A stretch of DNA of 32,000 bases from Microcystis aeruginosa NIES-843. Its GTDB lineage: Bacteria; Cyanobacteriota; Cyanobacteriia; Cyanobacteriales; Microcystaceae. Below the pieces are notes generated by a model. It was not told the origin of the DNA, ran no database searches, and worked only from the letters and a program-made list of their open reading frames with translations. The stretch covers positions 4,590,001 to 4,622,000 of the forward strand of contig NC_010296.1 in assembly GCF_000010625.1 (NCBI RefSeq), read 5' to 3'. Numbering within the stretch: position 1 is the stretch's first letter; each line of letters begins with the position of its first letter. The position numbers were made by a program, and so were the translations under genes. Below are positions 13,077 through 15,159 of this stretch, piece by piece.

Positions 13077-13319
13077 AAGGGGTTTTCCTTAAATACAAGC
13101 CTCGGCTATTGGTTAATTTAACTTAACATTGTCTGGGGATTTTGGCTAATGTCAAGCTTTTCACCGGTTCTTTATATAGGAAAAAGTTATCAATCCCTCA
13201 CTGACCTATCCAGAAATCGGTACATTGTCTCTATTTTGGGTAATTATATAGTACAATAAAACTACTGTATGATCTAAATCAAGCTAGAAATCTCTATCTG
13301 GTGATGATAAGATAAAGTG

Positions 13320-14507
13320 ATGGGCGAGAAACTGACAGGCGTTAATCCCAAGATAATCCAATGGGCAAGAGAAAGGGCGAGATATTCTCTTGAGTCTGTG
13401 GCGGTCAAGTTTAAAAAAGATGTTTCTGTTATCGAGAAATGGGAGTCAGGAGAGGACTTTCCTACCTATAGTCAATTGGAAAAGTTAGCAGAAATATATA
13501 AACGTCCTCTCGCTTTATTCTTTTTCCCAGAACCTCCCCTAGAAGCGGAGGAAAAACAAGAATTTAGAACTTTGCCAGACTTTGAAATCGAAAACCTGGC
13601 CGCCGATACTATCTATGCTTTACGACAAGCAAAAGCGATGCAATTGTCGCTACAGGAAATTAATAATGGTATTAATCCTAGTACCAAGAAAATCTTTCAG
13701 GATATTGCGGTTAGTTCTAGTGATGATTTAAGGAGATTAGCCGAACAGATCAGAAATTATTTAAACGTTACTCTAGAAGAACAACTGACCTGGAATGATC
13801 AGGAAACTGCCTTAAAAAAATGGCGTAGTGCCGTGGAAGAAGCTGGTATTTTTATTTTTAAGCGTTCTTTTAAGCAGCGAGAAATTTCGGGATTTTGCTT
13901 GATAGATATTGAATTTCCGATCATCTATCTTAATAATAGCACGGAAAAATCTAGACAAATATTTACCATTTTTCATGAATTAGCACATATTCTTTTGCAG
14001 ACTAATGGAATTACTAAGTCTGACGATAGATATATTAATAGTTTGCAGGGAGCAAATAAAAGTATCGAGATATTTTGTAATAAATTTGCTGCGGAGTTTT
14101 TGCTTCCTAATCATGTCTTTTCTGAGATAATTAGAGAAACAGTAGTTAACGTTAACGATAACGATAAAATTATCTCGAAAATTTCCAGTGATTATAAGGT
14201 TAGTCGAGAAGTAGTTTTACGAAAACTATTAGATAATAACTTAATCTCCCAGAAAGAATATACTCTTAAAGTAAACGAGTGGTACAGTGAGCAGGTGGGA
14301 AAAAGTCAGGACAAAAATAAAAAATCTGGAGGTAATCCCTATGCTAATCAGGCGACATATTTGGGAGAAAATTACCTAAAACTGGTGTTCAATAAATACT
14401 ATCAAGGCCAATACGATATTGAGCGCGTTGCTGATTATCTAAACATTAAAAAAGTTGCTACGGTGGAAAAACTTGAACAATATTTATTAGACAAAGGACT
14501 GTTTTGA
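13320..14507 (+). CDS. XRE-family HTH domain fused to an ImmA/IrrE (COG2856, M78-like) zinc metallopeptidase domain
   Basis: The N-terminus has an HTH-like segment (IIQWARERARYSLESVAVKF...IEKWESGEDFPTYSQLEKLAEIYKRPL). An HExxH motif (FHELAHIL, codons 13974-13988) is followed by a roughly 160-aa C-terminal extension. ATG at 13320 is preferred over GTG at 13317. The stop overlaps the next gene's start (TGATG at 14505-14509). Confidence 0.8.
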   Translation: MGEKLTGVNPKIIQWARERARYSLESVAVKFKKDVSVIEKWESGEDFPTYSQLEKLAEIYKRPLALFFFPEPPLEAEEKQEFRTLPDFEIENLAADTIYALRQAKAMQLSLQEINNGINPSTKKIFQDIAVSSSDDLRRLAEQIRNYLNVTLEEQLTWNDQETALKKWRSAVEEAGIFIFKRSFKQREISGFCLIDIEFPIIYLNNSTEKSRQIFTIFHELAHILLQTNGITKSDDRYINSLQGANKSIEIFCNKFAAEFLLPNHVFSEIIRETVVNVNDNDKIISKISSDYKVSREVVLRKLLDNNLISQKEYTLKVNEWYSEQVGKSQDKNKKSGGNPYANQATYLGENYLKLVFNKYYQGQYDIERVADYLNIKKVATVEKLEQYLLDKGLF

Positions 14508-15097
14508 TGGTTTACATTTTTGACACAAGTAGTTTTAAGGTTTTAGGAAACTATTTTCCCAAAAGTTTTCCCACCGTTTGGCAAAAAATCGATTTGCTTG
14601 TGTCAGAAGGTAAACTAAAATCAGTACGCGAAGTGCTTAAAGAAGTAGAATATGGCAATAATAAACAATTTGTTTTAGATTGGATAGACTCCAATAAACA
14701 AATATTTTTACCACCCACTGCTCAGGAAACTTTATTTAAGTGGGTGGGTGGAATTAAATATAAGATGAACGTAGGTTGGGTTGAAGCATGAAACCCAACG
14801 CCCGATTATGTTACGCTACCGCTAACCCATCCTACAAATAATTGTGCCTCCCTACTTATTGCTGAAATTTTTTCTATAAGAAACTTTAATGATTTAGTGA
14901 GTGAAAAAGCAAGATTACAAGGAAAACCAGTGGCAGACCCATTTATTATTGCCTGTGCCAAGATAAAAGACGGTTGCGTAATTACCGAAGAAGCCTTGAA
15001 GCCTAATGCTGCCAAAATTCCCACAGTCTGTCAACACTTTTCTATCGATTGTACCAATGTTCAGGGTTTAATGGAGCGGGAAGGTTGGCAATTTTAA
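14507..15097 (+). pseudogene. DUF4411-type PIN-like protein gene interrupted by a roughly 120-bp insertion carrying an in-frame TGA (fragments 14507-14791 and 14897-15097)
   Basis: Both ORF fragments are in the same frame (position mod 3 = 2), and the only stop between them is TGA at 14789-14791. The N-terminus is MVYIFDTSSF... (PIN-like acidic start). The C-terminal part, ...GKPVADPFIIACAKIKDGCVITEE...AAKIPTVCQHFSIDC...LMEREGWQF, matches the DUF4411 pattern as I recall it. Removing 14738-14857 gives a continuous ...AQETLF|IAEIFSIRNFNDLV.... Confidence 0.65.
14738..14857. mobile_element. Structured MITE-like insertion (about 120 bp) inside the DUF4411 gene
   Basis: Imperfect terminal inverted repeats: AAGTGGGTGGGTGG (14738-14751) against the reverse complement of GTGCCTCCCTACTT (14844-14857). 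An internal perfect 8-bp hairpin pairs GTTGGGTT (14775-14782) with AACCCAAC (14792-14799). A second inverted repeat pairs GTAGGTTGGGTT (14771-14782) with AACCCATCCTAC (14824-14835) at 11/12. Boundaries are approximate. Confidence 0.55.
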
Positions 15098-15159
15098 AAC
15101 TAAAATTAATGGATAAATTGCCAATAAATTTATATGTTGAAAAGGCTTTTTCTGGAAAA

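Follow-up and report, generated by a model that had tools for sequence, protein, structure and literature searches.

Background

The characterised homologue of the locus described here is VapBC52 (Rv2515c/Rv2514c) of Mycobacterium tuberculosis, for which toxicity and rescue were shown in 2019 (Akarsu et al., PMC6504116) and structures are available as PDB entries 9vzy and 9vzz (Singh et al., NAR June 2026, PMC13273310), both assigned to VapBC52 in the data statement of the latter paper. According to the same work, the N-terminal domain of the antitoxin, VapB52, binds the toxin dimer; single-stranded DNA (ssDNA) triggers self-cleavage of the antitoxin, with the FR motif F75-R76 as the proposed site; the toxin, VapC52, cleaves tRNA (PMC13273310). 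In the resting state the zinc site of VapB52 is blocked by a cysteine, C229, as the active site of CapP is by its own "cysteine switch". In the M. tuberculosis system, phage protection was seen upon overexpression of the toxin only, while the co-expressed pair gave none (PMC13273310); a defence role of the whole module is unproven even in this model system.

The gene pairing itself had been noticed earlier. The association of HTH-COG2856 proteins with PIN/DUF4411 genes emerged from comparative genomics in 2009 (Makarova et al., PMC2701414), and the combination of HTH-DUF955(COG2856) with DUF4411.1 was later predicted to be a "three-component" toxin-antitoxin system (Matelska et al. 2017, PMC5499597). 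The pairing also falls in the ImmA/Rosmer zone of the NetFlax analysis (Ernits et al. 2023, PMC10440598).

Here, one such pair is described, found in a 32,000 nucleotide stretch of the Microcystis aeruginosa NIES-843 genome, indicated as "the window" throughout. It is very probably the Microcystis orthologue of a VapBC52-type toxin-antitoxin module, defunct in the window because of a MITE in its toxin gene.

Results

Position and composition of the islet

The coordinates of all features are reported in Table 1. The segment singled out in a preliminary description of this DNA coincides exactly with the interval between ahcY and ribE, which directly bound it; its content is limited to two genes, in the same orientation, joined by a TGATG overlap. 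Its GC content is 35.3%, against a mean of 45.8% for the whole window: no other stretch of 2083 nt is poorer in GC, and only 0.2% of them are equally low. The AT-rich composition claimed for the segment is thus borne out, although the figure of about 52% GC quoted for ahcY was slightly too high (48.1%, with local peaks of about 50–51%); the contrast stands in kind.

Table 1. Features of the islet and of its borders; positions refer to the window.
Feature	Position	Strand	Evidence or remark
ahcY	11799-13076	-	
Islet between genes, 2.08 kb (2083 nt)	13077-15159		ahcY on one side, ribE on the other
ahcY/gene 1 divergent intergenic region, 243 nt	13077..13319	.	ahcY (-), gene 1 (+)
Sigma-70-like match TTGTCT-16-TATAGT	13225-13252	+	promoter scan of the intergenic region
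Gene 1, 395 aa: XRE HTH, M78/ImmA/IrrE zinc peptidase, C-terminal helical domain	13320..14507	+	Pfam, PDB 9vzy_A
XRE-type helix-turn-helix, residues 13-66	13356..13517	+	Pfam HTH_3, E 1.9e-6; 9vzy_A alignment
FR motif F82-R83, between HTH and peptidase	13563..13568	+	corresponds to VapB52 F75-R76
Peptidase_M78 domain, residues 173-303	13836..14228	+	Pfam, E 2.8e-22
HELAH, residues 219-223 of gene 1	13974-13988	+	
T232 of gene 1	14013-14015	+	residue at the VapB52 cysteine-switch position
Third zinc ligand, E250 of gene 1	14067-14069	+	
TGATG stop/start overlap, gene 1/gene 2	14505-14509	+	
DUF4411 gene (gene 2), codons 1-77, with D6 and E42	14507..14737	+	Pfam; alignment with intact alleles
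TTA flanking the MITE on either side	14736-14738 and 14856-14858		
MITE-like element, 117 nt	14739..14855	.	empty-site alleles
In-frame TGA inside the MITE	14789-14791		
DUF4411 gene, codons 78-156 and stop, with D104 (ADPF) and E122 (TEE)	14858..15097	+	Pfam
ribE	15160-15831	-	

The region upstream of gene 1 was scanned for signals. The sigma-70-like match in Table 1 is the one contained in the intergenic region, and it is not above chance, the promoter scan having given 4 matches where 7.2 are expected in shuffled sequences; a search for an operator-like inverted repeat upstream of gene 1 gave no candidate, and Rfam returned nothing meaningful over positions 12900–15400.

Gene 1, an HTH-peptidase fusion

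Gene 1 had been read as an XRE-type HTH fused to an HExxH ImmA/IrrE peptidase, and Pfam agrees, matching both HTH_3 and Peptidase_M78. Its product is identical to the NCBI entry [quoted passage not shown]. The alignment with chain A of 9vzy runs nearly end to end (residues 9–386 of the query on 3–384 of the chain, E 3.5e-32), with 27.6% identity over 388 columns: gene 1 is a full-length VapB52 homologue, apparently intact, whose HTH corresponds to the toxin-dimer-binding N-terminal domain of VapB52.

In an alignment of antitoxin homologues, F82-R83, H219, E220, H223 and E250 are unchanged in 78 out of 78 sequences; H219, H223 and E250 align with H216, H220 and E245 of VapB52. The cysteine-switch column behaves differently: threonine or serine is found in 71 of the 78 homologues, and cysteine only in VapB52. 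On this comparison, auto-inhibition by a cysteine switch probably does not apply to gene 1, and the switch may be a peculiarity of the actinobacterial branch, not a defining trait of the family.

Other collections locate gene 1 within the same wide group. Fifteen RmrA models of PADLOC match it, the best (E 3.5e-22) over residues 8–320, while the capP model covers the peptidase domain only (residues 172–305, E 6.1e-21) and PDB IrrE entries match residues 196–272 with E values of about 1e-3. PHROG 2439, annotated as "transcriptional regulator", scores E 1.5e-56. The NCBIfam model for the spr1629 antitoxin was discarded, the score of 47.7 bits being far below the cut-off of 335. RosmerTA is reportedly the RmrT/RmrA pair described by Millman and colleagues in 2022; PADLOC recognizes its RmrA component in gene 1, and no RmrT component in an adjacent gene.

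Gene 2, a DUF4411 PIN-like toxin gene

Gene 2 is presently read as two ORFs, of 94 and 66 aa, the latter GTG-initiated and located 3'. Its assignment to the DUF4411 PIN-like family, with the motifs originally listed, holds: Pfam recognizes the family in two pieces (14507–14791, profile positions 1–73, E 7.4e-8; 14897–15097, profile positions 100–159, E 4.3e-14), and ADPFIIA, TEE and KIPTVC are all found. The start of gene 2 on the stop codon of gene 1 was also correctly described, suggesting translational coupling of the two genes; gene junctions overlap in 56 of 80 loci of the family, 40 by ATGA and 16 by TGATG or TAATG.

The 5' and 3' parts of gene 2 share one frame, and no lesion besides the insertion is present. 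The reconstructed 156-aa protein aligns over its full length with VapC52 (PDB 9vzy_D/9vzz_A; E 1.8e-13, 28.6% identity). Four acidic residues of catalytic type, D6, E42, D104 and E122, are unchanged across an alignment of 18 diverse toxins, and all are retained in gene 2, where D6 is the residue changed in the D6A mutant of VapC52. An AlphaFold2 model of an intact allele (pLDDT 92.4) was compared with PDB by Foldseek: all the best matches are VapC/FitB PIN toxins, the top ones being Shigella VapC, FitB and M. tuberculosis VapCs (TM 0.5–0.6, probability 1.00). The library used (to April 2026) does not include 9vzy and 9vzz, so the link to VapC52 consists of the sequence match and of a generic PIN-fold match. 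PADLOC found no match for the two DUF4411 fragments at E <= 0.1, RmrT models included, nor for three intact DUF4411 homologues at E <= 1; NCBIfam had no match for the fragments either.

The statement, in the preliminary description, that the ImmA-DUF4411 pairing has no experimentally defined function has to be withdrawn, since VapB52 and VapC52 are full-length homologues of the two products, with known toxicity, rescue and structure.

A MITE interrupts the toxin gene

The net insertion in gene 2 is 120 nt long and in frame, being made of a 117-nt element and a duplicated TTA. The element ends in imperfect inverted repeats (AGTGGGTGGG / CCTCCCTACT) and contains a hairpin, GTTGGGTT-N9-AACCCAAC; its predicted fold is no better than that of shuffled sequences (z-score only -1.76). 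It is located between codons 77 and 78, where it parts D6 and E42 from D104 and E122, and the break falls within helix 72–82 of the PIN fold in the AlphaFold2 model.

Six empty-site alleles are available (L001, L083, L089, L091, L092, L094). One of them (L092, from Microcystis viridis NIES-102) has flanks 100% and 99.6% identical to those in the window, which indicates a recent insertion; this otherwise identical allele confirms the interruption of the DUF4411 gene by a MITE, as first proposed. The element recurs at a different site in another strain (L086, 2198–2320), with 98.4% identity and again between two TTA. In L087, from a further strain, an extra MITE was gained at the spot where the window has its insertion. 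An intron- or ncRNA-type reading of the insertion was dropped, given the lack of an Rfam match and the weak fold. What seemed an internal-deletion variant of the element in L099 proved to be a stretch of N. P0063, at first sight a separate MITE insertion in a different codon, derives from the same insertion by rearrangement, with 45 nt of target sequence duplicated, and was not counted as an independent event.

In the window the toxin gene is a pseudogene, and only the antitoxin/regulator gene remains intact. Consequently, the unit as present here is no working system: the earlier reading as a candidate toxin-antitoxin or defence-like module is upheld, but in this respect it is weaker than first put.

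Linkage and distribution of the pair

Co-occurrence was surveyed in 64 informative loci, i.e. DUF4411 loci of metagenomic or viral origin whose upstream sequence extends for 1.2 kb or more. A gene 1 homologue lies upstream of the DUF4411 gene in all of them (64/64). In 63 cases the homologue is full-length, immediately upstream and on the same strand; in the remaining one it lies 1258 nt upstream. The pair is present in 8 IMG/VR contigs and also on plasmids, and in a few other loci integrase and portal genes adjoin it.

Both genes, or what is left of them, occur in each Microcystis context that was sampled; some strains (NIES-102) have them intact, others in various states of degradation. Its neighbours there are ahcY, ribE, proA and dxr, housekeeping genes and no defence island. 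Comparison of the ahcY-ribE junction gave intact and degraded alleles, but no empty junction among the Microcystis contexts sampled. Outside Microcystis, ahcY was found beside neither ribE, gene 1 nor DUF4411 among the 80 loci listed by a search of genome contigs with AhcY, a protein so conserved that no Microcystis genome appears among the matches listed. That the islet is an "insert", as it was initially called, is supported by its composition, and it is from composition only that we infer it.

All alleles that carry the MITE (the window, L084, L086, L087, L090 and L093) have kept an intact gene 1. The pN/pS ratio is 0.31 for gene 1 and about 0.3 for the toxin gene, with ribE and proA as the only comparators, the ratio for ahcY being biased because loci had been chosen for an identical AhcY protein.

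Alternative interpretations

The conservation of gene 1 next to a dead toxin gene could suggest that it acts on its own, either as an autoproteolytic, LexA-like stress-responsive repressor, an analogy raised for COG2856-Xre fusions by Makarova et al. (PMC2701414), or as an anti-addiction factor against homologous toxins of phages or plasmids. Some constraint is indicated by its pN/pS, and related toxins could arrive by transfer, the pair being found on plasmids and viral contigs. Yet the toxin gene has the same pN/pS, no operator was detected, none of the 64 informative loci has gene 1 without the toxin gene and, the insertion being recent as judged from the flanks shared with NIES-102, selection is not needed to explain an intact reading frame. 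We regard a stand-alone role as unlikely.

A second possibility is that the module still works or may be switched on again, by precise excision of the MITE, which the TTA duplication would permit, or by reassembly of the two PIN halves. Such a view is suggested by an insertion length that is an exact multiple of three, by halves that share one frame, lack other lesions and keep the four acidic residues, and by the 3' half having its own GTG-initiated ORF. An in-frame length, however, has one chance in three of occurring, and the TGA within the element ends translation, while the helix that is broken belongs to a compact, single-domain fold. In Rfam the region shows neither an RNA family nor an intron-like structure, the fold z-score of the element is modest, and the second MITE at the same spot in L087 looks like decay rather than switching. 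A functional or switchable module is thus very improbable.

Finally, the islet is hardly to be taken as the remnant of an ImmA/ImmR or phage cI-like immunity region, whose protease would cut a separate repressor and induce the element: although M78 is the ImmA/IrrE family, the PHROG 2439 match is strong and the pair occurs in viral contigs and, in a few loci, beside integrase and portal genes, the islet lacks a distinct repressor, an integrase, att-like repeats and any further gene of such an element, its HTH and protease form a single protein, a PIN gene is the obligate partner (64/64 loci) and the homologue of known structure is a complex of toxin and antitoxin.

Discussion

The assignment of the islet to the VapBC52 type is based on homology, architecture, motif conservation, obligate gene linkage and the finding of both the insertion and its empty site. 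In the intact form, as in NIES-102, gene 1 and gene 2 would be co-translated from one transcript, and the 395-aa antitoxin would bind the DUF4411 PIN RNase in its dimeric form, with the antitoxin's HTH domain making the contact and the antitoxin's C-terminal helices covering the active site. A stress or infection signal (ssDNA in the case of VapB52) would then activate the zinc peptidase, which would cleave the antitoxin itself at the invariant FR motif that closely follows the HTH; the freed toxin would cleave tRNA, leading to growth arrest. In the window, the stop codon brought by the MITE into the toxin gene leaves a defunct module, with the antitoxin gene alone intact. For the Microcystis pair we infer trigger, autocleavage, RNA target and any part in phage defence by homology with the M. 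tuberculosis pair; with an identity of only about 28% between the respective proteins, the signal sensed and the RNA cleaved may not be the same.

The islet is a pseudogenised member of an already characterised toxin-antitoxin family, real but ordinary, and as a lead it is mostly closed, the founding member of the family having a crystal structure and a mechanism. The near-absolute linkage of the two genes, together with the invariant FR motif and zinc ligands, supports the extension of the VapB52 self-cleavage model across phyla, while the lack of conservation of the cysteine switch in the main clade qualifies the published mechanism in a way open to experiment. The naturally occurring, near-isogenic intact (NIES-102) and MITE alleles could be used to test an effect on cyanophage sensitivity in bloom-forming Microcystis. 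More speculatively, and with a low probability in our opinion, the large non-actinobacterial clade, featuring threonine or serine, may use a signal or mechanism other than ssDNA and the cysteine switch, and the HTH-peptidase surviving in toxin-dead Microcystis may have a role of its own, as autoproteolytic repressor or in immunity to cyanophage or plasmid toxins.

Comparison with known systems

Like VapBC52, the islet consists of two genes, antitoxin first. VapB52 and gene 1 share the XRE HTH, the HExxH M78 peptidase and the C-terminal helical domain, alignable end to end, as well as the FR motif and the H/H/E zinc ligands; VapC52 and gene 2 share the DUF4411 PIN domain, a length of about 155 aa and the same acidic residues, D6 included. 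The differences are the low identity (about 28%, in another phylum), a threonine in gene 1 in place of C229, the absence from gene 1 of a 23-residue disordered N-terminal extension and the MITE in the toxin gene of the window; toxin and antitoxin activities are known for the M. tuberculosis pair only.

The architecture of the islet is that described by Matelska and Makarova outside Actinobacteria, in which DUF4411.1 follows a gene with fused HTH and DUF955 (PMC5499597, PMC2701414). Theirs are predictions without a mechanism, to which the present survey adds the 64/64 linkage and the invariant FR motif.

The module belongs to a broader group, RosmerTA included, in which an ImmA-peptidase antitoxin is combined with a swappable toxin. 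RosmerTA and the ImmA hub of NetFlax, D25, are alike in pairing an HTH-ImmA peptidase antitoxin with interchangeable toxins, some of them PIN-like (PMC10440598). The DUF4411 toxin, in contrast, matches no RmrT model, and the characterised RmrT toxins are unrelated to it: that of Gordonia phage Kita depolarises the membrane (PMC10440598). Gene order, variable in the D25 hub, is fixed as antitoxin-first in the family of the islet.

CapP/CapH of CBASS, IrrE/DdrO of Deinococcus and ImmA/ImmR of ICEBs1 have in common with gene 1 the M78 zinc-peptidase fold family. The logic of a protease that is activated by DNA damage or ssDNA and cuts an HTH protein is shared as well. In those three systems the protein that is cut is a distinct repressor, and transcription of CBASS, of repair genes or of the ICE follows. 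In the islet, on the other hand, protease and HTH substrate are parts of one protein, whose cleavage is proposed to set free a PIN toxin; CBASS (capH, CD-NTase, effector), DdrO-like or ICE genes do not adjoin it. With canonical VapBC systems, where a PF01850 PIN toxin is paired with a small RHH, AbrB or PHD antitoxin, gene 2 shares the PIN fold, while their DNA-binding antitoxins, of about 8–13 kDa, are replaced here by a 395-aa HTH-peptidase fusion.

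Islet position and gene content

The AT-rich islet is very probably a toxin-antitoxin module of the VapBC52 type, in which a MITE insertion has recently disabled the toxin. Judged from the ends of ahcY and ribE, reported in the table below, it occupies the whole gap between the two genes. Its GC content (35.3%, vs 45.8% for the window, 48.1% for ahcY and 44.6% for ribE) is the minimum among all 2083-nt windows within the 32 kb: the contrast with ahcY, reported in the preliminary description, is real, although the value of about 52% given there for ahcY was a little high. The layout originally read, two co-oriented genes in the gap, agrees with the computed coordinates, and the Pfam check bears out the domains assigned to them: gene 1 fuses an XRE-type HTH (HTH_3, residues 13-66) to an ImmA/IrrE peptidase (Peptidase_M78, residues 173-303, E 2.8e-22), while gene 2, whose ATG overlaps the stop codon of gene 1 (TGATG, 14505-14509), matches DUF4411 in two pieces, sharing one reading frame.

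Features of the islet and allele states of Microcystis loci (window coordinates, unless a locus is indicated)
Feature or locus	Position	Strand	Description
ahcY	11799-13076	-	
ribE	15160-15831	-	
Gene 1	13320-14507		co-oriented with gene 2; 395 aa
Gene 2, 5' piece	14507-14791		DUF4411 profile positions 1-73
Gene 2, 3' piece	14897-15097		DUF4411 profile positions 100-159
MITE	14739-14855		117 nt, TTA on either side
In-frame TGA	14789-14791		inside the MITE
L083, L089, L091, L092, L094			intact pair
L084, L086, L090, L093			split by the MITE as in the window
L087	L087:6166-6353, ~14736		second, unrelated 186-nt MITE abutting the first; 8-bp duplication ACTTTATT
L082 (7330-7790)	13551-14644		deletion; HTH-coding 5' end of gene 1 fused to mid-DUF4411
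L085, L088	13637		rearrangement breakpoint in gene 1; menE beside the gene-1 stump

Interruption of the toxin gene

When aligned with intact homologues, gene 2 features exactly 40 extra codons at F77/I78, and the limits of the insert were set by aligning the DNA with that of an intact Microcystis allele. The insert is absent from M. viridis NIES-102 (AP019314.1, L092), whose identity to the window is 100% on the left (13000-14738) and 99.6% on the right (14853-15300); such near-identical flanks indicate a clean empty site and a recent insertion. MITE excepted, identity between the two is 99.7-99.9%. The insert is a mobile MITE-like repeat: a second copy, 98.4% identical, TTA-flanked and intergenic, is found at an unrelated position in another strain (L086:2198-2320). 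This copy is placed between a fatty-acid desaturase gene and dxr.

Gene 2 of the window is a pseudogene. An in-frame stop codon lies inside the MITE and, in the structure that AlphaFold2 predicts for the intact protein (pLDDT 92.4), the insertion point falls within helix 72-82; D6 and E42 are parted from D104 and E122, all four being acidic residues invariant in the DUF4411 family. The two pieces retain a common frame, and a reversible or split toxin is a minor alternative to inactivation.

Microcystis alleles and origin of the islet

The window is Microcystis DNA, and its gene 1 product has an exact counterpart in NCBI, labelled 'MULTISPECIES [Microcystis]'. Allele states were collected by look-ups with the exact AhcY and gene-1 protein sequences. 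The second MITE of L087 also lies in the toxin gene; its ends form inverted repeats (GGTTCTTCG/CGAAGAACC), and ACTTTATT is its target duplication. The AT-rich ACTTTATTTATT stretch seems to be a hot spot for insertions. About 100 extra nt are also present in L082, near window 13287, and in two strains (L085 and L088) what follows ahcY and the initial ~320 nt of gene 1 is a menC/menE region in place of ribE, the product of a chromosomal rearrangement. In allele P0063 (L190/L191, ~window 14736-14900) the left end of the MITE is replaced, with a 45-nt duplication of flanking toxin-gene sequence on both sides, a structure which may reflect either rearrangement or an error of assembly. In P0003, a common Microcystis DUF4411 allele (its cluster has 96 member sequences), 11 codons are deleted in frame (EYGN/NKQIF, equivalent to codons ~52-62 of gene 2). 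The loop and helix that follow E46 are partly lost, a change that may likewise attenuate the toxin.

None of the sampled Microcystis contexts is wholly without the element, and neither ribE nor the pair is found near ahcY in the 80 non-Microcystis ahcY loci, among the matches listed: no empty ancestral site is hence seen in these contexts. The term 'insert', used in the preliminary description, is based on base composition and on how patchily close homologues are distributed (Crocosphaera 60%, Planctomycetes 57%, others). Constraint on the pair is weaker than on housekeeping neighbours, yet present (pN/pS vs other strains ~0.3 for both genes; ribE 0.18, proA 0.08), and an independent role of the surviving gene 1 is a minor possibility.

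The far side of ahcY, beyond a VTT-domain gene (window ~9950-11000; ~10000-12500 in L082-L091), is hypervariable among strains. It contains small toxin-antitoxin-like genes, in sets differing by strain (PIN_3, PIN, HicA/UPF0150, DUF433/DUF5615, Polbeta nucleotidyltransferase, DDE transposase); in the window its ~1-kb spacer has 32-40% GC.

Linkage of the two genes across the family

A degenerate-pattern scan, derived from an 18-sequence DUF4411 alignment, yielded 80 metagenomic and 8 viral loci (37-95% identity). The co-occurrence of DUF4411 with COG2856, which the preliminary description proposed to survey, is nearly constant: among the 64 loci that extend at least 1.2 kb upstream, 63 have a full-length gene-1 homologue directly upstream on the same strand, and in the remaining one (L121) it lies 1258 nt upstream. 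Gene junctions overlap in 56 of 80 cases (ATGA in 40, TGATG or TAATG in 16). By tblastn, the pair is also found on Rhizobium, Pseudosulfitobacter and Enterobacter plasmids, the DUF4411 match there overlapping a neighbouring gene of the XRE/ImmA family; on Burkholderia, Arthrobacter, Bradyrhizobium and Methylorubrum plasmids DUF4411 homologues appear alone, with no adjacent gene in an incomplete plasmid gene table.

Among 115 neighbouring ORFs from 25 longer loci, DNA methyltransferases, RhuM, YhcG nuclease, a Y-family polymerase, integrase and phage portal recur: the neighbourhood is mobile or defence-flavoured, not exclusively so. That the islet is a remnant of mobile-element immunity is a minor alternative to a toxin-antitoxin module.

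Comparison with VapBC52

Gene 1 aligns end-to-end with chain A of PDB 9vzy (residues 9-386, E 3.5e-32, 27.6% identity), and reconstructed gene 2, also end-to-end, with 9vzy chain D and 9vzz chain A (E 1.8e-13, 28.6% identity), both labelled 'DUF4411 family protein'. These entries are the M. tuberculosis (Mtb) VapB52-VapC52 complex and VapC52 D6A, respectively (data statement, Singh et al., NAR 2026, PMC13273310). The preliminary description had recognised the components and the type of system correctly; the ImmA-DUF4411 pairing, described as lacking an experimentally defined function, already has one in VapBC52 (PMC6504116, PMC13273310). The window pair is a new, degenerate member of a known family. 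HTH-COG2856 fusions were linked with PIN toxins in 2009, with Rv2515c (VapB52) as the named example (PMC2701414); DUF4411.1 downstream of HTH-DUF955 was reported in 2017 (PMC5499597), and Rv2514c (VapC52) toxicity, with rescue by Rv2515c, in 2019 (PMC6504116). The NetFlax Rosmer zone includes ImmA-peptidase antitoxins, some with PIN-like partners (PMC10440598). In line with this literature, gene 1 matches 15 PADLOC RmrA models (best E 3.5e-22) and its peptidase domain is matched by capP; the PADLOC search proposed earlier was productive for gene 1 only, as the DUF4411 protein matches none of the models. Top matches in a fold search, whose library is older than the 9vzy release, were VapC/FitB PIN toxins only.

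VapB52 has three domains: the N-terminal one is XRE-like, the central one is an HExxH peptidase that includes an HTH subdomain, and the C-terminal one is helical. A single antitoxin molecule binds a dimer of the toxin, and self-cleavage of the antitoxin near a conserved FR motif is activated by ssDNA (PMC13273310). VapC52 cleaves tRNAs; even with the Mtb system, phage protection was obtained only with the toxin overexpressed alone, the pair giving none (PMC13273310). By homology, the intact Microcystis form would consist of one antitoxin complexed with a PIN dimer; a signal, the putative trigger, would activate the zinc peptidase to self-cleavage at FR, and the freed PIN toxin would cleave tRNA, its putative RNA target.

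In an alignment of 78 gene-1 homologues, VapB52 included, F82-R83 (VapB52 F75-R76) and H219/E220/H223 with E250 (VapB52 H216/H220/E245) are invariant. C253 (14076-14078), three residues past the third zinc ligand in an E-x-x-C-N motif, is conserved in 74 of the 78, including VapB52 (C248); the published switch cysteine is not. The latter, C229, occludes the zinc site in VapB52, whereas gene 1 of the window has Thr there; the column is Thr/Ser in 71 of 78 and Cys in VapB52 only. The self-cleavage logic is thus likely common to VapB52 and the family; auto-inhibition by a cysteine switch, as published for VapB52, probably does not extend to it.
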